64,000 nt of DNA from Nanobdellota archaeon (GTDB lineage Archaea > Nanobdellota > Nanobdellia > Woesearchaeales > UBA9642). The stretch lies in assembly GCA_041305085.1 (NCBI GenBank), contig JBFYMA010000022.1:484-64483 (forward strand), given 5' to 3'. This document shows positions 16,592-41,008 of the stretch, piece by piece. A model generated the notes under the pieces. It searched no databases. It saw only the letters and a list, made by a program, of their open reading frames with translations, and had not been told where the DNA came from. The position numbers and the translations under genes are program-made. The stretch's first letter is position 1; each line of letters starts with the position of its first letter.

Positions 16592-16914
16592 GCAGAGCAG
16601 CTGTAAGCCACCTTGTGTGCCTCTCCACGGTTCATGGACAGAGGCTCTTAACATTCGACTAAGCCCTCAATTGAGGTTGCACCAGCCAGTACTCGCCGTT
16701 TCATCCATTCTCTTGGAGACGTCAAAGGGTCAACTCATGCCTGTCGCCAGGCACTTCGCCATTATCATCCCATTCCAAAAGTGGTCTCGTTTCTGAGCCG
16801 TTCACCAGGATTTCTCCTGCTCTCTTCCGAGAGTGGCGCTTTCCCCCTTTCGGGATCGGTGGGTGGACTTTCCTCAGAGCTTTTTTCAGCCCCGAAAGTT
16901 AAGCACTGCCCTGC
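16592..16914 (-). ncRNA. rnpB: RNase P RNA (archaeal type A-like)
   Basis: Minus strand reads GCAGGGCAGUG...GAGGAAAGUCCACCC (CR-I/P4 5' strand) ... CACAAGGUGGCUUACAGCUGCUCUGCAC (CR-V/P4 3' strand ACAG.A..GGCUUA). The 5' and 3' ends form a roughly 9-bp P1. A palindromic TATA (tttataaa) lies about 23 nt upstream. Length is about 323 nt. Confidence 0.85.
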
Positions 16915-19005: not shown

Positions 19006-19614
19006 ATGTCAAACGAAGAATCATTCATGCTGGTTTCGCTTGAAGAAAATAAAGCCAAGAAGCTTGCCCAGGTTATAAGCAATGATACGAGCAGGAAAAT
19101 TCTTGACCTGCTGGCAAAAAAGGACTCAACAGAGACAGAGATAAGCAAAGAATTAGGCATTCCTATCTCTACAGTCCACTACAACCTAAAGGCTTTGATA
19201 GACTCCAATCTTGTGATAGTGGAGGAATACCATTACAGTGCCAAGGGCAAAGAGGTCAACCACTACAAACTGGCAAACAAGCTTATAATTATAAGTCCAA
19301 AGGAAAACACAGGGTTGAGAGAGGTCCTTAAAAAATTTCTTCCAATAACAATAATAACAGCGGCCGCAACTGCAATAATTTACTTTATCCAAAGAATCCT
19401 TTCAGGGCAGGATTTTGCTTCAAGGATTCAGGCTCCAATGATGTCAAAGGCTGCAGACGATGCAATGCTCATGACTGAAAGCACTATGGCAGAAACAGTC
19501 ACCCATGCAACTGCAACAAGCCAGTTTCCTTTTGCGCTGTGGTTTTTATTCGGAGCACTTTTTGTGATAATTCTTTACCTGATTTTTGAGATTATTGCAA
19601 AAAAGAGGAAATAA
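19006..19614 (+). CDS. ArsR-like winged-HTH regulator with C-terminal transmembrane segments
   Basis: N-terminal HTH (ILDLLAKKDSTETEISKELGIPISTVHYNLKAL) and two C-terminal hydrophobic helices. Confidence 0.65.
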   Translation: MSNEESFMLVSLEENKAKKLAQVISNDTSRKILDLLAKKDSTETEISKELGIPISTVHYNLKALIDSNLVIVEEYHYSAKGKEVNHYKLANKLIIISPKENTGLREVLKKFLPITIITAAATAIIYFIQRILSGQDFASRIQAPMMSKAADDAMLMTESTMAETVTHATATSQFPFALWFLFGALFVIILYLIFEIIAKKRK

Positions 19615-19692: not shown

Positions 19693-20706
19693 TTGTTTTG
19701 TATGGTTCACACTGTTTTCAAGATTGCAAACCTCACAAAAGTTTTTGGAAGGCATGTTGTCCTTAATGATATAAGCCTGGAAATTAATGCTGGAGAGATT
19801 TTTGGCATAATCGGAGCCAGTGGCTCTGGAAAAACAACATTTTTGAATACAATAATAGGGTTTTTAAGGCCTGAGATAGGTGATGTATTGTTCAGGGAGG
19901 AGCACCTTTTGGAGTTTAAGGAAGAGGATGCGTTTGTTTCTGTTTACAGAAAGCCAGCAGACCTTAAAAGGATCATAGGGTTTGCCAGCCAAAGCCCGTC
20001 TTATTATGAAGAGCTTACAGTAAGAGAAAACCTTGAGTACTTTGGGTCATTGCACAACCTCTCAAACGATGCCCTGACAACCAACATGAAGACTCTTCTT
20101 TCACTTATGGAGATAGAGGAATACAAGGACATGCTGGCAAAGAACCTTTCAGGGGGAATGGGCAGGAGGCTGGATATTGCTTGTGCACTTATCCATGACC
20201 CAAAAGTCCTTATTCTGGACGAGCCAACGTCAGACCTTGACCCTGTGCTCAGGAACCATATATGGAAGCTTATCCAAAAGATAAACAAAAAAGGGACATC
20301 TGTAATTCTTTCAAGCCACCACTTGAGGGAAATAGAGCTTTTGTGCAACAGGGTGGCCATACTTCAGAATGGAAAAATAATTGATGTAGGCACAACAGAC
20401 GAGATCAAGTCCAAGTTCTCCAAAAATGAGGAAATACATATTGAAAGCTTTCCAGGAAACTATGAAGAGCTTTCAAAAATTTCTGATCCGAACATTGCAA
20501 ATGTTGAGAACAAGAAAAATGAGTTGGTTATATATACGCAAAAGCCAGCCAAAGTTCTCAAACTGGTTCTTAACAGGATGGACAATCTGAAAGAAAAGAT
20601 AATAGAGATAAAGGTCAACAAGCCAAGCCTGGATGACGTGTTTTTCTCGCTCACAGCAAAAAAAGAAGCCCATGAAGAGGAAAAACGAGGCAGCAGCAAA
20701 AAATGA
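19693..20706 (+). CDS. ABC transporter ATP-binding protein
   Basis: Walker A GASGSGKTT, signature LSGGMGRRL, Walker B ILILDEPTSDLD, H-loop SSHHL. Confidence 0.9.
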   Translation: MFCMVHTVFKIANLTKVFGRHVVLNDISLEINAGEIFGIIGASGSGKTTFLNTIIGFLRPEIGDVLFREEHLLEFKEEDAFVSVYRKPADLKRIIGFASQSPSYYEELTVRENLEYFGSLHNLSNDALTTNMKTLLSLMEIEEYKDMLAKNLSGGMGRRLDIACALIHDPKVLILDEPTSDLDPVLRNHIWKLIQKINKKGTSVILSSHHLREIELLCNRVAILQNGKIIDVGTTDEIKSKFSKNEEIHIESFPGNYEELSKISDPNIANVENKKNELVIYTQKPAKVLKLVLNRMDNLKEKIIEIKVNKPSLDDVFFSLTAKKEAHEEEKRGSSKK

Positions 20707-22688
20707 AAATTTTCAGGATAATAAAAAAGAACTTTAAGCTTTTGCTGAGATCAAAGATTACTGCAATAGTAGTTGTGATAGCGCCTCTTTTGATAATACT
20801 TCTGGCAGGAGTTGCATTTAACAATAAGGACTCCGAGTCAGACCTTATAGTGGGAATATATCTTCAGAAGAATACAACTCTTTCTGCTTCTTTTATGGCC
20901 CAGCTGGAGAACAGCTCTTTTGAAATAACCCATTTTTCTTCTGAGCAGGAATGCAAAGACGCAATAAAGCAGTCCAATATTCAGGCCTGCATGGTTTTTC
21001 CAGAGGACTTTGAGATAATGCAGGATAGGCAGGCAGAGCTTTTTGTGTATGCAGACTATTCCAGGACAAATTTTGTTTTTTATCTTGTTGAATCCATATC
21101 AAAATCATTAAATACAAAAACATCAGAGCTTAGTGTAGGGCTTACAACCCAGATACTCGACGCTCTGGATAATGCAAAGCAAAAGAACTCAGAGGCTAGC
21201 CTCAAGCTGGTACAGATGAAGAGCTCTTTGGAAGAGCTTGAAAACTCCGCAGATACTCTCAAATCAAAACTTGACGCTATAAATGCAGAGAAGGAAAATG
21301 TGGGAATAACAGACATAAGCAGTTCTTTAGTAAACCTAAAAAGCGACATTGATGATCTGAAGCAAGATGGTGTAGATGCAGTGGGAATAGCCATAGAGGC
21401 AGGCGAAGCTGCACTTGATGAATACCCTGATATTTCAGACTGGGGAAACAATAACGAAACTTACAACATACTGATAGATGCCAGAGACCTTAATGACTCA
21501 TTGATTGTAAAAACCCATAATGAGTCAATAAAAGAGATAAATGAAATGCTTGCAACAATTGACGCAGCATCGGAAGCAGTCAAAAAAATTGAGGATAAGC
21601 TTGCAAAAGTGAAGGACTTCAAAACTTCAGGCTCTACAGATCTTTCATCGATAAAAACAAAGCTCACTTCCCTGAAGTCAGATGCAGAAGCCATAAAGTC
21701 GAGCCTTGAAGGAGTCAACCAGCAGATTTCCAGCCTGTCAATAACTTCTGCAGAGCGAATTGTCAACCCTATAAAAACAAACCTTCAGCCTGTTGTCACA
21801 GAGACCAACAACATAAACTATATGTTCCCGTATCTTATAATGCTCATAACTATGTTTGTATGCATTCTTTTATCAAGCACAACAATAATCATGGAGAAAA
21901 AATCCAAGGCTTACTTCAGGAACTTCACAACGCCAACTTCAGACCTAGTTTTTATCATCTCCACATACCTTACAAATATCATAATAGTTGTCTTGCAGCT
22001 TTTTGTGCTTTTTGTGCTTGCAAAATTTGCACTGGGCATACCAATAATAAACAATCTGCACTTTTCAATACTTGCATTGTTTATAGGCATTACTCTTTTC
22101 ACAGCAATAGGTATGGGGATTGGCTACTGGTTCTCAAGCCAGGAGGCTGCAATAATGCTCTCAATGTCAGTTGCAAGCATATTCATCCTGGTGTCCAACC
22201 TCATACTGCCCTTGGAAGTGATGCCTGCAACAATACAGGCAATTGCAGGATACAACCCATATGTGATGCTCTCAGAGCTTTTGAGGCAGCTCATAATCTT
22301 CAACATAATACCAAACACAATAGCATTTACTATGGTGATACTGGCCAGTGCAGCCATACTTATATTCCTTATTATTATTCTTATACAAAAAGTCTCTAAG
22401 CTTGCGTACTTCAAAAAGCTCCCCCACACAAAAAAGCAGAAGCTGGACAAAAGGAAAGAGGTCAGGCACAAAAATGCTTTCAAGCTCTATGAACGGACCA
22501 TTGAAAACCAGATAGACCTTCTTAATGAGCTGAAAAAAATGGATGATGAAACCTTTGCCACCTATGTGAGCAAGGACAAGAATGATTTCTATAACTGGGC
22601 AAAGTATGTGCTCAAGGACAAGAAGCTTGCAAACAAGCTGAAAGTAAGGACAAGGCAGGAAATGATTGGCGCAATAGAGCAGCAATAA
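20703..22688 (+). CDS. ABC-2 type permease with a large coiled-coil ectodomain (YhgE/Pip-like) and a C-terminal cytoplasmic module
   Basis: N-terminal TM, then about 300 aa of coiled-coil/Ser-Thr-rich region, then 5-6 TM helices. ATGA overlap with the ATPase gene. The C-terminal roughly 50 aa share the KDKNDFYNWAKYVL module with the AckA N-terminus. Confidence 0.75.
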   Translation: MKIFRIIKKNFKLLLRSKITAIVVVIAPLLIILLAGVAFNNKDSESDLIVGIYLQKNTTLSASFMAQLENSSFEITHFSSEQECKDAIKQSNIQACMVFPEDFEIMQDRQAELFVYADYSRTNFVFYLVESISKSLNTKTSELSVGLTTQILDALDNAKQKNSEASLKLVQMKSSLEELENSADTLKSKLDAINAEKENVGITDISSSLVNLKSDIDDLKQDGVDAVGIAIEAGEAALDEYPDISDWGNNNETYNILIDARDLNDSLIVKTHNESIKEINEMLATIDAASEAVKKIEDKLAKVKDFKTSGSTDLSSIKTKLTSLKSDAEAIKSSLEGVNQQISSLSITSAERIVNPIKTNLQPVVTETNNINYMFPYLIMLITMFVCILLSSTTIIMEKKSKAYFRNFTTPTSDLVFIISTYLTNIIIVVLQLFVLFVLAKFALGIPIINNLHFSILALFIGITLFTAIGMGIGYWFSSQEAAIMLSMSVASIFILVSNLILPLEVMPATIQAIAGYNPYVMLSELLRQLIIFNIIPNTIAFTMVILASAAILIFLIIILIQKVSKLAYFKKLPHTKKQKLDKRKEVRHKNAFKLYERTIENQIDLLNELKKMDDETFATYVSKDKNDFYNWAKYVLKDKKLANKLKVRTRQEMIGAIEQQ

Positions 22689-22751
22689 ATGAAAGAAGCA
22701 TAGGTCTGCTCCGTAAACAATAAAAACCCCTCCTGATTACTATAGCTAATA

Positions 22752-22943
22752 ATGGACAAAGGGTTTCAGTTTATGCGGTTTGGTGTCATGAGCATTTTGG
22801 GTGCTGCAGGAATGTACTTTTTCAGGGATTCAGCTATGTTTAACATTGCAGCCCTGCTCTTTATAGTTGCTACGTTTATCTTTGCCGCAGTGCTGATAAT
22901 TCCTGACAAATATGGAAACAGGCACATTGCCAGGAGGATATGA
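22752..22943 (+). CDS. small membrane protein (2 TM, hypothetical)
   Basis: 63 aa with two hydrophobic helices. Its stop overlaps the next start (ATGATG). Confidence 0.4.
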   Translation: MDKGFQFMRFGVMSILGAAGMYFFRDSAMFNIAALLFIVATFIFAAVLIIPDKYGNRHIARRI

Positions 22944-23509
22944 TGGGTTGGTTTGTTGCGGCTGTTTCAGGGACTCCAGGAACAGGAAAGACTGCTCTTT
23001 CAAAGCTTCTCGCAAAAAAATTTAATCTTTGTTATTTTGATGTCAACAATTTCATAAAAAAAAATGGGTTGGCAGAAAAATTTGACAAAGAGATGCGCTG
23101 CTGGGTTGTTAATGAGGTAATTCTGGCCAAGAAACTTTCTCAGGAGATTGTGCGCATTGAAAAGCTCCAGCCTGCAATACTGATGGATAAGAAAGACTTT
23201 TTTGCAAGAATAAATAAATTTCTCAACACAAAAAAAAATCCAGGAACAATTAAAGGCAGAAAAAATGTTTCAAAAAAGCAAATATTTGCAGGATTAGTTA
23301 TTGATTCACATCTAAGCCACTATTTGCCAAGAAAAATTGTGGATTTATGCATAATAACCAAGACTAGCCTGAAAACACTTCAAAAAAGGCTCAAAAAAAG
23401 GAGATATTCTAAAAAAAAAATAAGAAAAAATCTCGAAGCAGAGGCGTTTGACACCTGCTATGAAGAGGCGCTCCACAAAAATCACAAAATAATTGTTTAC
23501 AATAATTAA
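22943..23509 (+). CDS. Fap7/adenylate-kinase-6-like P-loop NTPase
   Basis: VAAVSGTPGTGKTALSK Walker A within 10 aa of the N-terminus, about 185 aa. AGGAGGA SD upstream. Start could be 22940 or 22943. Confidence 0.65.
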   Translation: MGWFVAAVSGTPGTGKTALSKLLAKKFNLCYFDVNNFIKKNGLAEKFDKEMRCWVVNEVILAKKLSQEIVRIEKLQPAILMDKKDFFARINKFLNTKKNPGTIKGRKNVSKKQIFAGLVIDSHLSHYLPRKIVDLCIITKTSLKTLQKRLKKRRYSKKKIRKNLEAEAFDTCYEEALHKNHKIIVYNN

Positions 23510-23510
23510 G

Positions 23511-24143
23511 ATGGATAAAACAAAAGCCAAAAGAATTGTGGAGATTCTTTACAAAGAATATCCTGAAGCAAAAACCTCTTTGAATTACAGGCATCCAATG
23601 GACCTGCTTGTTGCAACAATACTTTCTGCCCAGTGCACAGATGCAAGGGTTAATATTGTAACAAAGGAATTGTTCAAAAAATACAAGACACCTAAGGAAT
23701 ATGCTAATGCAAATCTAAAAACCTTTGAACAGGAAATAAAGAGTACTGGTTTTTACAGGAACAAGGCCAAAAACATTATTCTTGCTGCAAAGATAATCCA
23801 GCAAAAGCACAAAGGAATAATTCCTCTTTCAATGGATGAGCTTATTGCATTGCCTGGCATTGGCAGAAAGACTGCCAACGTCATAATAAGCAATGTGACT
23901 GGCAAGCACGAAGGAATAGTTGTTGATACACACGTAAAAAGGCTGTCTTACAGAATTGGATTTACTGAAAACAAGCAGCCTGAAAAAATAGAAAAAGATC
24001 TTGTAAATCTTTTTGAAAAAAAAGACTGGGGATTCCTGAGCCATGCGCTTATATTCCACGGCAGGAAAATATGCACAGCCCGAAAAACCCACTGTGAAAA
24101 ATGCATACTTAATAAGCAGTGCAGGAGCGCTTTTAAGGTTTAG
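23511..24143 (+). CDS. nth: endonuclease III (HhH-GPD DNA glycosylase with 4Fe-4S)
   Basis: HhH-GPD motif LPGIGRKTANVI..D and a C-terminal Fe-S cluster C..(6)..C..C..(5)..C (CTARKTHCEKCILNKQC). Confidence 0.88.
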   Translation: MDKTKAKRIVEILYKEYPEAKTSLNYRHPMDLLVATILSAQCTDARVNIVTKELFKKYKTPKEYANANLKTFEQEIKSTGFYRNKAKNIILAAKIIQQKHKGIIPLSMDELIALPGIGRKTANVIISNVTGKHEGIVVDTHVKRLSYRIGFTENKQPEKIEKDLVNLFEKKDWGFLSHALIFHGRKICTARKTHCEKCILNKQCRSAFKV

Positions 24144-24152
24144 AAAATTTAT

Positions 24153-24275
24153 TGAAAATTTCGACTAAAAGGAAAAATTTCTATGGGTTGAATATCACAG
24201 AGTGCAGCAATCTTTGATTGCTCTGCACCTCGACCTTTAGGTTGAGGATAGGGCGAACCTATCAGTAATCAGGTG
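24153..24275 (+). repeat. structured intergenic repeat element, copy 1 (deletion-derivative of the composite form)
   Basis: ttgaaaatttcgactaaaagg...gaatatcacagagtgcagcaatctttgattgctctgcacc...cctttaggttgagg...atcaggtgcatttttgtt. The sequence is shared with copies at 50030, 47212 and 36624. Confidence 0.75.
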
Positions 24276-24287
24276 CATTTTTGTTAT

Positions 24288-24728
24288 TTATATTTCTATC
24301 CTATTTTTAAAAATATCAAATTTTTCAAACTTTGCATTTTGTACTCTTGTTTCAAGCCCAGGGTCATTACCTCTTCTTTCAAAAAAGCGCCTCTGCTCGT
24401 GCATTATGTCTTTATGAGGATCTATTGAGTCACTTTCAATTTCTTTTGCTAGTTTTGCTCTGTCAATAGCGACATATCTGAATTTTAATTCCCCTCTTGA
24501 CATTGAAAAGTATAAAATCTCAGCTATGTTGTCAAGGTAAAGTGTATCTTCTGGTCTTATTTTGTTTAGCCTGCTGAAATCAATTGCTAAATCAAAAGCA
24601 GCAGAATCATCTGAGGCAAGAAATTTGTAACATGACCAGTCTTTCATGATATTATATGAGTATTTTGTTACATGCCCTGTCTTACCATTTTTTACAATGT
24701 ACTTAGCTACGCATATTCTTCTTCTCAT
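24288..24728 (-). CDS. hypothetical protein
   Basis: 146-aa ORF immediately flanked by repeat copy 1. No motif recognised. Confidence 0.45.
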   Translation of the reverse strand: MRRRICVAKYIVKNGKTGHVTKYSYNIMKDWSCYKFLASDDSAAFDLAIDFSRLNKIRPEDTLYLDNIAEILYFSMSRGELKFRYVAIDRAKLAKEIESDSIDPHKDIMHEQRRFFERRGNDPGLETRVQNAKFEKFDIFKNRIEI

Positions 24729-24826
24729 ACTTTGTCTGAAACTTTTTTCTATATAAAAACTTTTCGGGAGTTAAAAATAACAGAGGAAATAAAGTCTTAG
24801 GATTTTTCTATGTTTTAGAAACTGAT

Positions 24827-26245
24827 TCACTCCAGCGTATTATTTTCCAGCTCAACGCACTCCTTTGCTATCTCCAGCTCCTCGTTTGTAGGAATTACCA
24901 TGACCTTGATTTTGGAATCATCACTGCTTATGATTTTTTTGTTCGCTTTGTTTTTTTGGCTGTTCAGCTTTAGCCCTGCAAAAGCCAGCGCTTCACAGAC
25001 TTGTTCTCTGATATACCATGCATTTTCTCCAATGCCTCCTGTAAACACGAGCGCATCCATCCCGTGAAGTATGGTCATGTAGCCGCCTATAAACAGAGTT
25101 ATCCTGTAGGCCAGCATGTCAAGTGCTAGCTGGGCCATCTTGTTGCCATTTAATGAAGCTTCTCTTAGATCCCTTACATCGCTGGAAAGGCCTGCTATGC
25201 CCTTAAGTCCAGAACTTTTGTTAAGAAGATTTTCCATCTTTTCTATCGAGTAGTGCTTTTTTATCAGGAAAAGGACAATTTCAGGGTCTATTTCCCCGCT
25301 TCTGGTTCCCATAATCAACCCATCCAGCGGAGTAAAGCCCATGCTTGTATCGATGCTTTCACCATCTTTTATTGCAGTTATAGAGCTACCGTTTCCTAGA
25401 TGGCAGACAATCATTTCGTGGCTTTCTTTTTCAAGAATGTCTGAAGCCTTTCCTGCAACGTACCGGGTGCTTATGCCGTGAAAGCCATACTTTCTTATGC
25501 CATATTTTTCATAGAGCTCGTAAGGGATGCCATAAAGAAATGCCTGCTTGGGAATTGTTGAATGGAACGCTGTGTCAAAAACTGCAACCTGTTTTTTGTC
25601 TGGAAGAATTTTTCTGCATGCATTGATTCCTGCAAGGTTTGCAGGGTTGTGCAGCGGAGCAAACTCTGAAAATTTTTTTATTTCCCTGATAACCTCTTCT
25701 GTTATGAAAACAGGCTTTGAAAACTCTTCTCCTCCATGAACAACTCTGTGCCCTATCAGGGAGATGTCATTAAACGAGGAGATTATTTTGAATGAGATAA
25801 GCGCCTTTAGCGCAAGGGCGACAGCTTCTTCGTGGCTTTTTACAAAAATACTTTTTTTTATGTCCTGCCCGTGCGCACTCACCTGCAGAAAGCATTTTGG
25901 TGTTCCTATTGAATCAAAAACCCCCTTTATAAGCTGGCTTTCTGTCTGTGAATCGATGAGCTGAAACTTTAGCGAGCTGCTGCCTGCATTCAGAACAAGA
26001 ATTTTGAGGCTTCTGTAATTTTGCAGTATTATCAAAAAGTGCTTTTTGTCATAAATATTTTTTATTTCATGCGCAAGCTCGTACATCTTAAGAACATCTT
26101 TTATCCAGTTGTAGAAATCGTTCTTTTTATCGTTTACGTGATGGGTAAACACAGAGTCGTTCATGCTCTTTATGCTTTCTATGAGCCCTTCAAACGAACT
26201 TATCTCTGTGCCATCAATTACTCTGAAAAAACTTTGCTTGTCCAT
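24827..26245 (-). CDS. ackA: acetate kinase with an approximately 75-aa N-terminal extension
   Basis: ILVLNAGSSSLKFQL (ASKHA phosphate-1), HRVVHGG, GFTPLDGL.MGTRSG.IDP, and a C-terminal ELENNTLE-type end. The N-terminal extension carries the DKKNDFYNWIKDVL module. Confidence 0.88.
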   Translation of the reverse strand: MDKQSFFRVIDGTEISSFEGLIESIKSMNDSVFTHHVNDKKNDFYNWIKDVLKMYELAHEIKNIYDKKHFLIILQNYRSLKILVLNAGSSSLKFQLIDSQTESQLIKGVFDSIGTPKCFLQVSAHGQDIKKSIFVKSHEEAVALALKALISFKIISSFNDISLIGHRVVHGGEEFSKPVFITEEVIREIKKFSEFAPLHNPANLAGINACRKILPDKKQVAVFDTAFHSTIPKQAFLYGIPYELYEKYGIRKYGFHGISTRYVAGKASDILEKESHEMIVCHLGNGSSITAIKDGESIDTSMGFTPLDGLIMGTRSGEIDPEIVLFLIKKHYSIEKMENLLNKSSGLKGIAGLSSDVRDLREASLNGNKMAQLALDMLAYRITLFIGGYMTILHGMDALVFTGGIGENAWYIREQVCEALAFAGLKLNSQKNKANKKIISSDDSKIKVMVIPTNEELEIAKECVELENNTLE

Positions 26246-33006: not shown

Positions 33007-33879
33007 TCAAACATACTTCTCCATGTCCTGGGAGATGTCTTCTTTGTTGATGGGGTAGTCGATCAGCGCTTTGCCGCCCTGGAGCGCTATGCAGTTTTCT
33101 TCGTAGGTTTTTCTTTCATGCTTATAGAATATGCCTATGGGCACTTTTTCTCCGAACTCTTCAGCCTTTTTCAGAGCTGATTCTTTGCTTGTAATATCAT
33201 GCCCTTGATCCTGTAGTTTGTAAACTCTTTCCTTCCAGAACTGGAATGTGTTGTGGTGGTTGAATGTTACGCAGGGCTGGAATATGTCTATGAGCGCAAA
33301 GCCCTTGTGCTTTATGGCTTCCATCATCAGCCATTTTAAGTGCTGTATGTCCCCTGCATACCCTCTTGCAACAAAGCTTGCACCTGAAGCAATTGCGACG
33401 CTTATGGGGTTGAATGGGACTTCATAGTTTCCCTGAGGGCTGGTTTTGGTTATTATGCCTTGTTCGGTTGTTGGGCTGGTCTGGTTTTTTGTGAGTGCAT
33501 AAAGAAGGTTGTCGTGCACAAAATAGCTTATGTTTATGTTTCGTTTGCAGGCGTGTATAAAGTGCTGCAGTCCTTCTCCATAGCCGTCTCCGTCTCCTCC
33601 TGCACTTACCACAGTAAGTCTTGGATTGGTAAGCTTTATCCCTTCAGCAACTGGAATGCCTCTGCCGTGTATTGAGTTGAACCCTATTGTTTTTACCCAG
33701 TAAGGGATTTTGCTGGAGCAGCCGATTCCTGAAGTAAGCACAAATTCATCTCTTGGTATTCCAAGTTCCATGACTGCCATTTTAATTGCAGTCAGTATGC
33801 CGAAGTTTCCGCAGCCAGGGCACCAATTATTGTCTTTGCACGCCCTGTCAAGGTCTTTGAGTGTTATTTTTTGCTCCAT
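33007..33879 (-). CDS. 2-oxoacid:ferredoxin oxidoreductase, beta (TPP-binding) subunit
   Basis: WCPGCGNFGI and GIGCSS TPP/Fe-S motifs. Immediately downstream of the alpha subunit. Confidence 0.85.
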   Translation of the reverse strand: MEQKITLKDLDRACKDNNWCPGCGNFGILTAIKMAVMELGIPRDEFVLTSGIGCSSKIPYWVKTIGFNSIHGRGIPVAEGIKLTNPRLTVVSAGGDGDGYGEGLQHFIHACKRNINISYFVHDNLLYALTKNQTSPTTEQGIITKTSPQGNYEVPFNPISVAIASGASFVARGYAGDIQHLKWLMMEAIKHKGFALIDIFQPCVTFNHHNTFQFWKERVYKLQDQGHDITSKESALKKAEEFGEKVPIGIFYKHERKTYEENCIALQGGKALIDYPINKEDISQDMEKYV

Positions 33880-33882
33880 TTT

Positions 33883-35619
33883 TTATTTTCCCAGCAGTTG
33901 TTTTGCCTTGTCATATATTTCTTCAGGATAAAATGCCCTTCCGTCGTATTTCAAAAATGTGTCAAGCTTGTGGCCTGTGAATTCCCTTATTATTCCTGCA
34001 AGCTGCCCAGTAAAATTGTTTTCAACAACTATTGACTTTTTGAAATTCCTGAAATAGCTGCTGAACTCCTGCTCTGGGAAAGGATAGATATAGGTTATCT
34101 GCAAAAAGTTTACTTTGAGGCCTTCTTTTTCCAGCCACTTCATTGCCTCAAGTATAGGCCCTTTGGTTGAGCCCCAGGAAACAATTGAAATGTCTGCATC
34201 TTTTGGCCCGTATAATTTTGGCTTGGGAATATCTTTTTTTGCGTATTCCAGCTTTCTGAAGCGCTTGTTCATCTGCTGGTTTCTTACTTCTATTGACTCA
34301 TCAAATACGCCAGTTTCATCGTGCTCATCGCTTGTAACCATAAATATTGCTTTTTGGCCTGGAACAGCTCTTGGGCTGACACCTGTTTCAGTATTCTTGA
34401 ACCGTTTATAATTGCTGCCCATACTTGCAGCTTCCTGGTCTGTAAGATAATCCCTTTCACGAACCTTTATTTTGTGCTGGTCAAAAAAAGGAACAGTTAT
34501 TTCGCTGCCTCCAAGGTATTTGTCAGTTATTATTATTACAGGAAGATGGTATTTGTATGCAAGGTTAAAGGCATTTATTGTTTCATAGAAGGACTCTTCC
34601 ATATCTCCTGGAGCAAGAATAATCCTGGGAAACTCCCCGTGGGATGCATTGAGCGCAAACTTCAGGTCAGACTGCTCTGTCCAGGTTGGGATTCCTGTTG
34701 AAGGCCCTCCCCTTGTTGCCAGAACAATAACCAAAGGAGTCTCTGTTATGCCAATCATTCCCAGTGTTTCACTCATAAGCGCAAACCCTCCTCCAGAAGT
34801 GGCTGTCATAGCCCTTGCCCCTGCAAAGCTCGCCCCGACTGCGTGGTTTATGGCGCTTATCTCGTCCTCTGTCTGCTTCATTATGAGATTGTGGGATTTT
34901 TCCCTGTTAACCATCTCTATCATTATTGAGGTTGCAGGAGTCATTGGGTATGCTGACATAAACTTGCAGCCTGCTTTTATTGCTCCCAATGCTATGCATG
35001 AGTTTCCTGTTATGAGCATCTGCTTCTTTTTTTTGTCAAGAACTTCCATCTTTGTTTTAAACCTGACATTGTTATAGTTTTTCTTTACATAGTTGTATCC
35101 TTCCATGAAAAGTTTTGTGTTTTCCTCAATTATTTCTTCGCCTTTTTTTGCAAATTCTTTTTCAAGGATTTCTGTAAACATTGTGGTGTCATAGTCGAGT
35201 ATTGCAGTACTTGCCCCTAATGCTACTATGTTTCGCATTATGGGCTCGCCCTTGTTTTCCCTGACAATCTTTTTTATAGGAACAGAAAAAAGCTGAATAT
35301 TTTTGAAAGGCTTTACATCGACTGTTTCAGGGTCAAAGATTATTGCCCCGTCATCTGTAACCTCTGATGCGTTTTCTTTTATTGTGTTCTGGTTCAATGC
35401 CACAAGTATGTCAATAGGCCTTATCTGGGAGTGTATCTGCTCATCCTCAGCCCTTACATGAAATGTGTTGTGACCGCCCCTTATCAATGAAGGATATTCT
35501 GTATAGCAGAAGACATTGTAGCCTGCTCTTGAGAATGCTTTGGCAAATATTGTGCCTGATTCCATGATGCCATAGCCTGCTTCTCCTCCAATCTTCCAAG
35601 AAACCTTGTTTTTCGCCAT
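33883..35619 (-). CDS. 2-oxoacid:ferredoxin oxidoreductase, fused gamma/alpha subunit
   Basis: N-terminal gamma-like domain (KIGGEAGYGIMESG..F) followed by alpha-domain motifs (AYPMTPAT, GGGFALMSE), as in two-subunit archaeal OFORs. Confidence 0.85.
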   Translation of the reverse strand: MAKNKVSWKIGGEAGYGIMESGTIFAKAFSRAGYNVFCYTEYPSLIRGGHNTFHVRAEDEQIHSQIRPIDILVALNQNTIKENASEVTDDGAIIFDPETVDVKPFKNIQLFSVPIKKIVRENKGEPIMRNIVALGASTAILDYDTTMFTEILEKEFAKKGEEIIEENTKLFMEGYNYVKKNYNNVRFKTKMEVLDKKKKQMLITGNSCIALGAIKAGCKFMSAYPMTPATSIMIEMVNREKSHNLIMKQTEDEISAINHAVGASFAGARAMTATSGGGFALMSETLGMIGITETPLVIVLATRGGPSTGIPTWTEQSDLKFALNASHGEFPRIILAPGDMEESFYETINAFNLAYKYHLPVIIITDKYLGGSEITVPFFDQHKIKVRERDYLTDQEAASMGSNYKRFKNTETGVSPRAVPGQKAIFMVTSDEHDETGVFDESIEVRNQQMNKRFRKLEYAKKDIPKPKLYGPKDADISIVSWGSTKGPILEAMKWLEKEGLKVNFLQITYIYPFPEQEFSSYFRNFKKSIVVENNFTGQLAGIIREFTGHKLDTFLKYDGRAFYPEEIYDKAKQLLGK

Positions 35620-35681
35620 ACACACCCCTTTTTAACTGTTTGAGGGAATATTATTATTTATAAACTTTGCGGATGTTAATG

Positions 35682-36701: not shown

Positions 36702-37826
36702 ATGGAATCAAAAAATTGCAGGATAAAAATCATTAACGTTGTAGGCGCAAGACCTAATTTTGTCAAAATTGCACCTATTATGAGGGAGCTAAGAAACCAT
36801 AGTTTTTTTGAACCAATACTTGTACATACCGGACAGCACTACACAAAATCCATGAACGAGTATTTTTTTGAAGATTTGGGAATACCTAATCCTGATTACT
36901 CTTTGGGTGTGGGGTCAGGCTCTCATGCTGTCCAGACAGCAAAAATAATGACTGAGTTTGAAAAAGTGTGCCTTTCTGAAAAACCTGATCTCGTACTGGT
37001 AGTTGGTGATGTTAATTCAACAATAGCATGCGCACTGGTTGCAAAAAAGCTTCACATAAATGTTGTGCATGTAGAAGCAGGATTGAGAAGTTTTGACAGA
37101 GAAATGCCTGAAGAAATCAACAGAATATTAACAGATTCCATCTCTGACTTGCTTTTTGTGACAGAGATTTCAGGGATTCAAAATCTAAAAAATGAAGGGG
37201 TTTCTGAAGATAAAATGTTTATGGTTGGAAACGTAATGATTGACTCCCTTGTTCACAGCATTAAAAAAATAAGAAATGGGAAGTATTTTAAAAAATTTGG
37301 AGTAGACCCAAAAAAATATTTTGTACTAACTCTTCACAGGCCGAGCAATGTTGACAAAAAAGAAAACATTTTGTCCCTTCTTGATGCCATCAGCAAAATA
37401 CAAAAAAATGTAAAAATTGTTTTTCCTATTCACCCCAGAACTCTGAAATCACTAAAGGAAAAAAACATTCTGGAATCAGTAAAAAAAATGCAAAACCTAA
37501 TAATTTGCGAACCACTAAACTATATTGGCTTTTTGTCATTGGTCTATTACTCGAGAGGTGTCCTGACAGATTCGGGAGGGATCCAGGAGGAAACAACATA
37601 TTTCAAGATTCCTTGTATAACAATCAGGGAAAACACAGAAAGACCTTCAACAACAAAAACAGGAAGCAATATTTTGGTAGGTACTAATCCTGAAAGAATC
37701 GTTGAGGAAGCAAAAAAAGTTCTGGAAAATAAAAAATTTGAATCAGGGATACCTGAATTTTGGGATGGAAAAACCGCAAAAAGAATCGTTCAGATATTAT
37801 CAGAGCGTTTGAAAAATGGCAGTTAA
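36702..37826 (+). CDS. wecB: UDP-N-acetylglucosamine 2-epimerase (non-hydrolysing)
   Basis: KIINVVGARPNFVKIAPI, HTGQHY, HVEAGLRS, typical WecB/MnaA motifs. Confidence 0.88.
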   Translation: MESKNCRIKIINVVGARPNFVKIAPIMRELRNHSFFEPILVHTGQHYTKSMNEYFFEDLGIPNPDYSLGVGSGSHAVQTAKIMTEFEKVCLSEKPDLVLVVGDVNSTIACALVAKKLHINVVHVEAGLRSFDREMPEEINRILTDSISDLLFVTEISGIQNLKNEGVSEDKMFMVGNVMIDSLVHSIKKIRNGKYFKKFGVDPKKYFVLTLHRPSNVDKKENILSLLDAISKIQKNVKIVFPIHPRTLKSLKEKNILESVKKMQNLIICEPLNYIGFLSLVYYSRGVLTDSGGIQEETTYFKIPCITIRENTERPSTTKTGSNILVGTNPERIVEEAKKVLENKKFESGIPEFWDGKTAKRIVQILSERLKNGS

Positions 37827-39144
37827 AATAATCATTGTTGTGTTGGCTCCTGCAAAAGGAATTGGTGGAGGAAACAGAAAATTCAAAATTTATTATGACA
37901 ATTTTGATAAAAAATACTTTAACAAATATTATGTTTTTCTTGACAAAAACCCCAGAGCTTTTAAAAAAAACAAAGACGGTACATTCAACATAGGACTTGA
38001 AAAGTTACAACAATTTTTGGACAAAAAAAAGGCAGATTTTTTTTTTAGTGGGGAAAAAATTCCTGAAAAATTTTATAACGAAATTAAAAAAAAGTGCTTT
38101 TCCATAATTAATGTAAATTTCACATATCTTTATTCTAAAGACTCTAAGGATATAAACATTATCATAAGCAAGACAGACTATTTAAAGATAAAGCTTATTA
38201 ACAAAAAAATCCAGAACGCATATGTAGTATACAATCCCATAGATGTAAAAAAATGGGAATCTTTAAGAAATAATAGTCAAGGAAAGTATAAAAACTATTT
38301 TAAAAACAAAAAAATAAAATTAATTGTTGGTAGACTGGCCAGAGCAGAGCCCAGCAAATGGAATTATTTGATTATTAAAACACTTCTGCAAATGCAAAAA
38401 AGAAAGATATATGATTACGGATTTGTATTTGCAGGCATGACTGCATTATACAGAAAAACATTGCAGCTTTTCTTGGGAAGAAAAATGCTTGAAAACATCC
38501 TGTTTCTTCCCGAACTCAAAAAAGATGAAGACTTATCCAATTTTTATAACTCTATAGATCTTTTTTGGCAAACGTCCTTAATTGGCGAAAGCTTTGGAAA
38601 CGTTATTGCAGAAGCTTTTTACTTCAAGGTTCCAGTAATAACTGATTATAAAAGATTTGTGAGAAAAAATAAAAGAATAGACTTTTGGAGATATGATGCC
38701 CAGATAGAACTGGTGGATGATGGAAAAAATGGAAAATACTGCAACTATCCACAAAAAGTTATACAATTTTTGCAAAATACAAACTCTAAAAAACTTAAAA
38801 AAATGGGGGAAAATGGACTAAAAAAAACAAGATCTAAATATGATGTCAGGGACACATGCAAAACTTTTGCAAAAATATGCTATGAATACCTGAGAAAAGC
38901 CAAAAAAATTCCCAAAGATCCAAAATTTGAAGCCATCAAAAAAAAGCCTTCAGAAAAAGAATTAGATGATTATGAAAAAGAGTATTTTAAGAGAATAAGT
39001 TATGCTGTAAAGATTAACAAAATAAAACAAAACGAAAAAAGGACTTACAAAATCCAGGAATGGTTCTGGAAAAAAATAGAGTTGTTATATGTTGTAGTAA
39101 GAAAAGTTTGCAAAAAGCTCAAAATAGAATTGGAAAAGATGTAA
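37816..39144 (+). CDS. glycosyltransferase family 4 (GT-B) with a C-terminal extension
   Basis: EX7E motif GESFGNVIAEAF. Overlaps the wecB end by 11 nt. Confidence 0.7.
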   Translation: MAVKIIIVVLAPAKGIGGGNRKFKIYYDNFDKKYFNKYYVFLDKNPRAFKKNKDGTFNIGLEKLQQFLDKKKADFFFSGEKIPEKFYNEIKKKCFSIINVNFTYLYSKDSKDINIIISKTDYLKIKLINKKIQNAYVVYNPIDVKKWESLRNNSQGKYKNYFKNKKIKLIVGRLARAEPSKWNYLIIKTLLQMQKRKIYDYGFVFAGMTALYRKTLQLFLGRKMLENILFLPELKKDEDLSNFYNSIDLFWQTSLIGESFGNVIAEAFYFKVPVITDYKRFVRKNKRIDFWRYDAQIELVDDGKNGKYCNYPQKVIQFLQNTNSKKLKKMGENGLKKTRSKYDVRDTCKTFAKICYEYLRKAKKIPKDPKFEAIKKKPSEKELDDYEKEYFKRISYAVKINKIKQNEKRTYKIQEWFWKKIELLYVVVRKVCKKLKIELEKM

Positions 39145-39145
39145 A

Positions 39146-41008
39146 ATGTGTGGAATTTCAGGAATGGTTTTAGGAAATGGACAGGTTTCAGAAGATGTTC
39201 TGGAAGAAAATAACAATATAATGAAGCACAGGGGTCCTGATGATTCAGGAATATGGATTTCTAAAGACAAAAAAACAGGATTTTCCCATTCAAGGCTTTC
39301 AATCGTAGATCTTGATAAGAGATCAAAACAACCAATGATTTTTGAAAATGAAAAAATTGTCATCATTTTCAATGGAGAAATATATAACTATGTTGAGCTA
39401 AGAAAAAAACTTCAAAAAAAATACAAATTCAGAACAACATCTGACACAGAAGTTTTGGGTTATTTGTATATTGAAAAAGGAGTGAAGCTCTTAGACGAGA
39501 TAGAGGGAATGTTTGCATTCGCAATTTATGAGAAAGAACAAAATAAGACTTTTATTGCAAGAGATTTTATAGGACAAAAACCACTCATCTACTGCCAAGA
39601 TAAGGAAGGGTTTTTTTTTGGCTCAGAAATACCTGTCATTCTCAACAGCAACCCTAAACTTGACAAAAAAATTGATTATGGTTCTTTAGGTGTCTTTCTA
39701 ACTCCAAATTTCAGCCACATACCTGCACCATTCACTATCTTCAAAAATATCAAAAAGCTGGAGCCATCACATTACATAATAGTGAAACAAGGAAATATTA
39801 TTGAAAAAAAGCAGTATTACAAACTTCAAAAGAAAAAATTAAAAAAAAGAAACGAAGCTGATTTTATTTGCAGAAAAGTTAACTGGATGAAGCCTCTGGA
39901 CGTCAAATATGCCTCTTTCCTTTCGGGAGGTAATGATTCCTCACTTGTTTGCAGCTGTCTTGAAAAAGAAGCTGAAAAAAAAGTAGAGGTATATACGTTA
40001 AAGGTGGGAAATACTGATAAGGATTTTGAAAGAGCCAAATATGTTGCGAAAACACTGCATTTAAAACACAGCACAACAAATTTTAACTTTGAAAATTTTT
40101 TGAATAGTTTGGAAGACCAGATAAAAAACTTTGGCGAGCCTTATTACCACATCACTTCTGTTTATGCAGACTATATTCTGAATATGGTTGCAAAAAAATA
40201 CAAAGTTTTGTTTTCAGGCGCGGGAGGGGATGAAGTCTATTACGGGTATGACAACATCCAGTTTATTTTGATTGACTTTTTCCTTAAATCAAAAAAAATA
40301 ATTCCAAATTTTTTGTTTAAAGTTTTTCTGCCAAAAAAATATTCCTTTTTGCACGATGCAAACCATCAAAATTTCAAAGAAAAGTATTACAGCCACTGCT
40401 TTAACAGAACAAAAAATATTTTTGATTCTCAAATTGTTTGTAAAAAAACAAAAGAATACCTGAAAAAAATAAGCTCACAAATATTTATTCTCACAGATGC
40501 AAAAAATTATTTGGATATATCATACATGGCAGGAATTTATATAGAAAACAGCCATTCACTCACAATACAAAGCGATCTTGTGGGGATGAAAAACTCTGTG
40601 GAGATAAGATGTCCTTTTTTGGAAAAAAAAGTTATAGAAAGCGGATACAGTCTTCCTTTGCACAAAAAGATAAGTATTTTCAGGATAAGGGAAGGAAAAG
40701 AAGTGATAAAAAAAGCGCTTCTTAAAACTTTTTCAAAAAAATTTGTTTACTCAAAAAAAATTGGTTTTGGAGTGGAGTTCAAAGGACAAAAAAAAATACT
40801 AGAGTTGCATACAAAAAAAATAAGTAAGTACTTGAAAGATTTGGCAAAAAGAAAAGAGTTCAGCAACCTAGAAATAAGCAATATTCTTAAAAGAAAAAAA
40901 GAAAAAAAGTTTATACTTTTGATGAAGCTTTACTGCATCGAGACATGGTTTAAGGAATTTATCGACAAAAAAAATCATGATGTTAATTATTTTTTAGCAC
41001 AAAAATGA
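39146..41008 (+). CDS. asnB: asparagine synthase (glutamine-hydrolysing)-like amidotransferase
   Basis: N-terminal MCGISGMV (Ntn Cys) and PP-loop SGGNDSS. 620 aa. Confidence 0.85.
   Translation: MCGISGMVLGNGQVSEDVLEENNNIMKHRGPDDSGIWISKDKKTGFSHSRLSIVDLDKRSKQPMIFENEKIVIIFNGEIYNYVELRKKLQKKYKFRTTSDTEVLGYLYIEKGVKLLDEIEGMFAFAIYEKEQNKTFIARDFIGQKPLIYCQDKEGFFFGSEIPVILNSNPKLDKKIDYGSLGVFLTPNFSHIPAPFTIFKNIKKLEPSHYIIVKQGNIIEKKQYYKLQKKKLKKRNEADFICRKVNWMKPLDVKYASFLSGGNDSSLVCSCLEKEAEKKVEVYTLKVGNTDKDFERAKYVAKTLHLKHSTTNFNFENFLNSLEDQIKNFGEPYYHITSVYADYILNMVAKKYKVLFSGAGGDEVYYGYDNIQFILIDFFLKSKKIIPNFLFKVFLPKKYSFLHDANHQNFKEKYYSHCFNRTKNIFDSQIVCKKTKEYLKKISSQIFILTDAKNYLDISYMAGIYIENSHSLTIQSDLVGMKNSVEIRCPFLEKKVIESGYSLPLHKKISIFRIREGKEVIKKALLKTFSKKFVYSKKIGFGVEFKGQKKILELHTKKISKYLKDLAKRKEFSNLEISNILKRKKEKKFILLMKLYCIETWFKEFIDKKNHDVNYFLAQK

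Follow-up and report, generated by a model that had tools for sequence, protein, structure and literature searches.

A DUF5752/OrfY-type module carried by an ABC-2 permease and an acetate kinase of a Nanobdellota archaeon, and its association with glycogen genes in DPANN archaea

Introduction

The Pfam family DUF5752 (PF19027), or OrfY family, is an already catalogued domain family whose structure has been solved as PDB entry 4CSO, the OrfY protein of Thermoproteus tenax. OrfY, about 210 aa long, stands alone and is built of two repeats. Its gene is reported to adjoin treT in T. tenax (Kouril et al. 2008, Arch Microbiol 190:355). No paper mentioning DUF5752, PF19027, OrfY or 4CSO was found in the literature searched. 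The analysis described here concerns a stretch of 64,000 nucleotides from a Nanobdellota archaeon (contig JBFYMA010000022.1, positions 484 to 64,483 of the forward strand), referred to below as the window. Within it, an ABC-2 permease and an acetate kinase (AckA) share a segment, found at the C-terminus of the former and the N-terminus of the latter, and both segments are almost certainly single repeat copies of the DUF5752/OrfY domain.

A second body of work bears on the wider family to which these segments belong. Archaeal glycogen synthases of the GT3 type are confined to DPANN archaea and Euryarchaeota and are uncharacterised, and no glycogenin-like primer protein has been found for them (2024 review, PMC11046441). 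As discussed in more detail below, genes encoding relatives of the window modules are commonly found between an alpha-glucan enzyme gene and a synthase gene of this type.

The two segments and their hosts

The genes and segments under discussion are these, with pta and the ATPase gene included as immediate neighbours:

19693..20706, plus strand: ABC ATPase subunit (PF00005 and DrrA1-3_C matches), its stop overlapping the permease start
20703..22688, plus strand: ABC-2 permease gene, 661 aa (open reading frame (ORF) and Pfam ABC2_membrane_3)
22386..22460, plus strand: lysine/arginine (K/R)-rich cytoplasmic linker past the sixth transmembrane (TM) segment, permease residues ~562-586
22461..22685, plus strand: permease C-terminal DUF5752/OrfY-type module, residues 587-661
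22578..22598, plus strand: permease KNDFYNW codons
24827..26245, minus strand: ackA gene, 472 aa, module plus acetate kinase (ORF, PF00871 and TIGR00016)
26012..26245, minus strand: AckA N-terminal DUF5752/OrfY-type module, residues 1 to ~78
26105..26125, minus strand: AckA KNDFYNW codons
26272..27261, minus strand: pta, phosphotransacetylase (PF01515, E=7.5e-110)

An ungapped alignment of the end of the permease with the start of AckA has 20 identities and 29 positives over 42 residues (BLASTP, E=5e-12), and allowing one single-residue gap carries the alignment to the upstream F-x-[LV] strand. An earlier note on this DNA, made from the sequence alone, had claimed such a common, translated segment, and in this it was right, although the module is about 65-80 aa long (some 70 in the permease and 78 in AckA) rather than the 50 or so residues it had supposed. 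The KNDFYNW codons read AAGAATGATTTCTATAACTGG in the permease and AAGAACGATTTCTACAACTGG in AckA; the mismatches are two third positions only, as the note had said while giving the two strings in swapped order. In the 126-nt core, 56% of the nucleotides are identical, and the identities by codon position (0.52/0.81/0.36) indicate protein-level conservation with no recent DNA duplication. A recent intragenomic duplication or conversion was rejected on these figures, and on the finding that the two modules are not mutual nearest relatives. Scanning the six-frame translation of the window with the motif and with a hidden Markov model (HMM) of the family revealed no third copy of the module.

On the AckA side, the kinase itself is complete. 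Pfam Acetate_kinase (PF00871) covers residues 81-461 (493.6 bits against a cut-off of 22, E=4e-148), TIGR00016 covers residues 79-466 (493 bits against 293.4), and the phosphate-1 motif LVLNAGSSS occupies residues 83-91. The family HMM envelope takes in residues 1-70 at 100.5 bits, and the module abuts the first kinase strand, KILVLNAGSSS. It might be supposed that the resemblance is fortuitous, or that the extension is an annotation artefact with translation beginning at the internal Met of MYELAHE (residue 54), which does exist in the sequence. That said, this explanation can practically be dismissed. The pairwise E-value is far from chance, the AlphaFold2 (AF2) model of the module is confident, and the upstream region is kept in 37 orthologues, with N-termini conserved to 45% overall identity (for example HYFVLxxGxxIKDLxELxxxLKxIDxKTFEYHVNDSKNDFANWIRYVFK), whereas the internal Met is not. 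Moreover, pta lies only 26 nt upstream of the long ackA start in the window and 2 nt upstream in a close relative (L081), a spacing that supports the long form. Thus the extension is translated and under protein-level constraint, as had been proposed, and the alternative that the note had named as fatal to it, a start at the internal Met behind a non-conserved leader, is the reverse of what the homologues show.

The extension is not, on the other hand, the oddity it was taken for within this lineage: it is present in about one third of the nearest AckA homologues, with 37 of the closest 120 carrying the module and 83 being without it. In a rough neighbour-joining tree of kinase domains, module-bearing AckA proteins are not monophyletic but fall into clades of 27, 5, 2, 2, and 1 among 119 sequences (P0001-P0120), a hint that the fusion was gained or lost more than once. 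The tree is too crude to tell several gains from one gain followed by losses. A single origin of the fusion, with the five clades so placed, finds no support in it.

The permease is likewise an unambiguous member of its family (Pfam PF12698, ABC2_membrane_3, 114 bits against a cut-off of 31.6), and the gene for its ABC_tran partner overlaps its start. Its six hydrophobic TM segments are arranged, from N- to C-terminus, as one TM helix, an extracytoplasmic coiled-coil loop of ~340 aa, five TM helices, and a cytoplasmic tail, and its K/R-rich N-terminus lies inside. Ten of the first 25 residues past the last TM segment are K or R, and by the positive-inside rule this linker places the tail in the cytoplasm; the module is accordingly predicted to be cytoplasmic on the permease, as it is on AckA. 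The family HMM envelope spans residues 587-654 (79.9 bits). About 25 of 45 permease homologues keep the C-terminal module and about 20 lack it; those that keep it are 630-700 aa long and 31-68% identical, and the shorter ones (500-600 aa) are without it. The fusions to the N-terminus of Woesearchaeota-type AckA and to the C-terminus of the ABC-2 permease are ancient and separate.

Identity and fold of the module

Against PF19027, the AckA copy scores 19.1 bits and the permease copy 17.5, each below the gathering cut-off of 23. The 208-position model spans two repeats, so a single repeat can reach only about half of the attainable score. The two window copies match different halves of the model, from which it follows that DUF5752 is itself a tandem of the module unit. 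Several relatives do exceed the cut-off (P0151 at 48 bits, P0121 at 43, P0124 at 36, L010 at 30, L043 at 26, and P0213 at 24, along with a further one at 31), and precomputed PF19027 matches exist on eleven AckA orthologues. NCBIfam holds no model that matches the module.

Profile searches lead to the same place. A single-sequence phmmer comparison with 4CSO is weak (E=0.45). A profile built from 16 modules (A1) has 4CSO as its single PDB match, in two stretches (E=5.8e-5), and one built from 50 diverse modules (A3) finds it at E=3.1e-8 and 36.4 bits, with no other PDB relative. In the A3 alignment, module columns 6-66 correspond to OrfY 17-88 and the second repeat to OrfY 166-191. The AF2 model of a single module (pLDDT 89.4) is a beta-hairpin followed by four helices, to which the tandem model adds a fifth helix, K[TS]KEEMIxxLE. 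4CSO is also the sole Foldseek match, the single-module model reaching a probability of 0.84 and the tandem model 1.00. The module is an independently folding, cytoplasmic alpha+beta domain of the OrfY type.

The window modules and OrfY have in common the fold and the motif H-x(5-16)-NDFxxW...LA, with an 11-residue insertion before NDF in OrfY. They differ in architecture: in the window, a single repeat sits at one end of an enzyme and of a transporter, and the two-repeat, stand-alone form of ~210 aa is not seen. The window modules are therefore single-repeat variants of the domain and not OrfY orthologues. The earlier note had allowed that a known common domain of trivial function might account for the similarity; the domain is indeed catalogued, but as a domain of unknown function (DUF), so no trivial function is assigned to it.

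A large family in DPANN archaea

A word-index protein search with the module alone returned no matches. The family did emerge when 1.84 billion cluster representatives (clusters at 50% identity) were searched without an index: 4753 of them match at E<=1e-3, of which 3296 also pass E<=1e-10. Nearly all of these are from DPANN archaea, whose genomes are tiny, yet the module family amounts to thousands of clusters. The consensus reads YFxLxNGxxIKxLxEL..L..MDDxTFxHHVNxxKNDFxNWIxDVfkDxxLAxkI, and the most constant positions in the logo are F7 (0.92), G12 (0.90), L21 (0.95), F33 (0.87), H36 (0.93), N42 (0.97), D43 (0.93), F44 (0.94), W47 (0.99), L57 (0.94), and A58 (0.86). KNDFYNW is not special to the AckA-permease pair but simply follows this consensus, KNDFxNW.

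Among the best matches and the related loci, the module forms proteins of its own (80-200 aa), is repeated two or three times in tandem, is followed by a C-terminal TM anchor, or is part of coiled-coil proteins. It is also fused to GH57 enzymes, a PfkB kinase, a transketolase C-terminal subunit (Transketolase_C), KaiC-like ATPases, giant HerA/DUF87 membrane ATPases, and, in P0213, a TrmB-type winged helix-turn-helix (wHTH) plus cold-shock protein. The grafting onto two unrelated proteins described at the outset is real, but it is one instance among thousands of family members on many unrelated proteins.

Two architectures deserve description in their own right. Among the top 150 family members, 23 begin with MVKxxIxGLLxKK and one to three [IV]PDELPxL[AV]ED motifs, followed by an acidic region, a coiled coil, and one or two modules (P0124-P0166 and others; L087:5001-6293, L088:5001-6293). 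PDELPxL could be a short linear binding motif, and one member with this architecture adjoins an ORF of giant size (at least 5919 aa). In the other architecture, giant membrane proteins of 1300-1970 aa (P0140, P0163, P0168, P0172, P0184, P0190) have an extracytoplasmic N-terminal part, then a TM segment, a HerA/DUF87-type ATPase, and two C-terminal modules with a long, charged linker between them. The N-terminal part was scanned in P0140, where it is made of CarboxypepD_reg repeats. The gene contexts of P0175, P0202, P0129, and P0151 were uninformative, being short contigs or having unannotated neighbours.

The breadth of fusion partners bears on one possible role, that the module binds nucleic acid. 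The PDB label of 4CSO is transcription factor, and the partners include the cold-shock domain and TrmB wHTH of P0213 as well as KaiC/RadA-like and HerA/FtsK-like ATPases. Such a role is nonetheless very improbable, since the module is acidic (mean net charge -1.6 over 218 modules). Moreover, no HTH, helix-hairpin-helix or other nucleic-acid-binding fold was matched, the partners are mostly metabolic enzymes, transporters or membrane anchors, and no paper supporting the PDB label was found.

Association with glycogen genes

Genomes were scanned for a single narrow peptide pattern, which yielded 411 confirmed sites; of these, 80 loci were kept, ranked by similarity to the AckA module. Nearly all carry the labels Woesearchaeota, Nanoarchaeia or Nanoarchaeota, and a few are from Aenigmatarchaeota and Altiarchaeota. 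At 47 of the 80, a GH57 gene lies directly upstream of the module gene or genes on the same strand, and in four it is fused to the module. A GT3-type glycogen synthase gene (Glycogen_syn, PF05693) is present at 34, and both enzymes at 33, with the module genes between them. The usual order, established by Pfam on ten examples and by the census of all 80, is GH57, one to three small module proteins, and a GT3 glycogen synthase of the eukaryote type (L007:1298-5572; also L014, L017, L031, L033, L036, L041, L048, L054, L058, L061, L069, and others). The small proteins of these operons comprise 49 soluble ones, often with a basic N-terminal tail, and 21 that end in a TM helix. Two-module proteins of the OrfY type also occur directly after Glycogen_syn, once together with a debranching enzyme. 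By neighbourhood and by fusion, then, the family is strongly tied to alpha-glucan enzymes, and this gene context is shared by OrfY/DUF5752 and the family at large.

The two settings of the module may occur together on one contig. QZIT01000005.1, a 576-kb Woesearchaeota contig, contains a GH57-module-module-glycogen synthase cluster (L017:2585-6398) and apparently also carries an orthologue of the permease with its module (P0274, 56% identity).

The window neighbourhood and the question of an AckA-permease pair

Two further features of the window are relevant to the hosts:

19006..19614, plus strand: ArsR/TrmB-like wHTH protein (HTH_20, HTH_5 and TrmB matches)
33007..35625, minus strand: pyruvate:ferredoxin oxidoreductase (POR) subunits (POR, POR_N, TPP_enzyme_C and PFO_beta_C matches)

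The wHTH protein has a C-terminal membrane segment and is encoded upstream of the ABC genes. POR and pta-ackA make up an ATP-yielding route from pyruvate to acetate, the end of sugar fermentation. In the relative L081, the genes for POR, pta and ackA are contiguous, with pta and ackA in the same order as in the window.

The proximity of the two module genes, which are 2.1 kb apart, invites the idea that their modules form a specific heterodimer tethering AckA to the exporter, for example to couple the production of acetate and ATP to export. Both modules are cytoplasmic, and the neighbourhood is kept in L081. AckA modules also tend slightly towards the soluble subtype, and permease modules towards the anchored one. 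When soluble and tail-anchored modules of the glycogen operons are modelled as separate subtypes, the window AckA module scores +3.2 bits (soluble) and the permease module -7.0 bits (anchored), values too weak for use given that the subtypes are weakly separable, with 84% and 64% correct in hold-out. A dedicated pair of this sort is quite improbable. Compared over 55 aligned columns, the two window modules have 38% identity, and when 276 modules are ranked by similarity to one of them, the other comes at about position 140; nothing therefore points to a specific AckA-permease pair. Modules of unrelated proteins in other genomes are 50-56% identical to either window copy. The fusions are independent and lie in separate clades, many homologues of each host have no module, and there are thousands of other carriers. 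Synteny (permease, AAA_18, EndoIII, ackA-pta) is seen in one close relative only and is ordinary synteny.

Several other features of the window may be recorded. A 63-aa two-TM peptide ORF follows the permease (22752-22943, plus strand) and a 146-aa ORF lies directly downstream of ackA (24288-24728, minus strand), both without a Pfam match; in L081, other genes (EncFtn-like, CYTH) are downstream of ackA. An archaeal RNase P RNA is found at 16592-16914 (minus strand, 144.6 bits); together with the nearest homologues, it assigns the window to a Woesearchaeota-like DPANN archaeon. No tRNA genes were found in the 64-kb window. The stretch 37816-41008 has a GC content of 0.30 compared with ~0.40 elsewhere; it covers a GT1-family glycosyltransferase gene and an asparagine-synthase-like gene and adjoins a gene for UDP-GlcNAc 2-epimerase. 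This stretch could be an island for glycan synthesis that was acquired horizontally.

What the module might do

The earlier note had suggested an interaction, localisation or regulatory domain, and this is still the best class of explanation, provided it is not made specific to AckA and the permease. Within that class, we tentatively favour a cytoplasmic docking or targeting handle of a glycogen-linked assembly, while putting its chances at somewhat less than even. On this proposal, the module would have one common partner (a glycogen enzyme, the glucan particle, or a further module), and the proteins that carry it would be brought to a membrane-associated assembly for glycogen fermentation, or regulated together with it. 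The module-fused enzymes (GH57, PfkB kinase, the transketolase subunit, and AckA) take carbon from glucan to acetate, and the module is also fused to membrane proteins on their cytoplasmic side, namely the ABC-2 permease and the HerA-like ATPases. AckA and the permease would then share an address rather than being private partners. The presence of POR, Pta and AckA in the window supports this proposal.

A number of observations weigh against it. The functional argument is built on architecture and gene neighbourhood. Neither glycogen gene is present at 32 of the 80 loci, and no GH57 or glycogen synthase gene lies within the 64-kb window. The share of loci with GH57 upstream, 59% (47/80), may be biased, since a single narrow pattern was used to collect the loci, which were then ranked by their resemblance to the AckA module. 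The tandem AF2 model (pTM 0.61) has no fixed module-module packing, and its inter-repeat arrangement differs from that of OrfY (TM-score 0.34, root mean square deviation 19 A), which speaks somewhat against a simple pairing of modules. Some permease lineages retain the domain but have lost NDFxxW, with sequences such as NALYEYGK and NRVADFAAEVL in its place (P0276, P0277, P0281, P0289-P0291, P0294, P0297, P0309), which suggests that the motif may be dispensable for some roles of the domain. Finally, the near-invariant residues H36, K41, N42, D43, and W47 would suit a site for a small ligand or sugar no less than a protein interface.

This last point leads to the chief alternative, a small-molecule sensor which, as ACT and CBS domains do, would allosterically tune the protein to which it is attached. 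The ligand might be a sugar, a sugar-phosphate, an NDP-glucose or a nucleotide, and the targets AckA, the ABC exporter, GH57, PfkB, and the ATPases. The conserved residues, among which F44 may also be counted, are polar or aromatic; the module is fused to, or sits beside, glucan and central-carbon enzymes and ATP-using machines; and its stand-alone and tandem forms resemble those of ACT and CBS domains. We regard a sensor as possible but doubtful. No known ligand-binding fold was matched, NDF caps the N-terminus of helix 3 in the AF2 model and may be structural, and the same motif has decayed in the permease lineages listed above. Many carriers, being coiled-coil or tail-anchored, are without a catalytic part to regulate, and it would be surprising for the family to be so largely confined to DPANN archaea if the module sensed a universal metabolite.

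The docking proposal can be taken a step further. The module might serve as the address tag in a glycogen metabolon that is specific to DPANN archaea and tethered to the membrane, with the small operon proteins as the missing partners of the GT3 synthase. These would serve the synthase as primer, anchor or regulator, and AckA, PfkB, transketolase, GH57, and the ABC-2 exporter would be recruited through the module to one particle. In this extended form the idea is unlikely to be correct as it stands.

Whatever its role, the glycogen-operon tie is a testable handle on how carbon storage is organised or regulated in fermentative episymbionts, and it bears on the question, raised by the 2024 review (PMC11046441), of which partners the archaeal GT3 glycogen synthase has. 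There are also consequences for annotation: the long forms of AckA and of the permease are genuine, and the two-repeat DUF5752 model of Pfam under-detects single-repeat copies.

Comparison with known systems

In comparison with canonical AckA (PF00871/TIGR00016) and ABC-2 permeases (PF12698), the window hosts are ordinary full-length members with an extra terminal module. What appears to be undescribed is the promiscuous single-repeat form of DUF5752, its expansion in DPANN archaea, and its tie to operons of GH57 and GT3 glycogen synthase.

Among better-known modules, ACT and CBS domains are similarly small, occur alone or in tandem, and are fused to many metabolic enzymes and transporters, but the window module has no fold or sequence match to them. 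A looser analogy can be drawn with the glycogen-targeting modules of eukaryotes, the carbohydrate-binding modules (CBM) of families CBM20/21/48 found on the PP1 G-subunits, AMPK-beta, laforin, and membrane-anchored Stbd1. There too a small module is set on unrelated proteins, one of them anchored in a membrane, and recruits them to glycogen and its enzymes, as the archaeal module might do. The eukaryotic modules are beta-sandwiches, however, whereas the archaeal one is mostly helical, with no relationship to them in sequence or fold.

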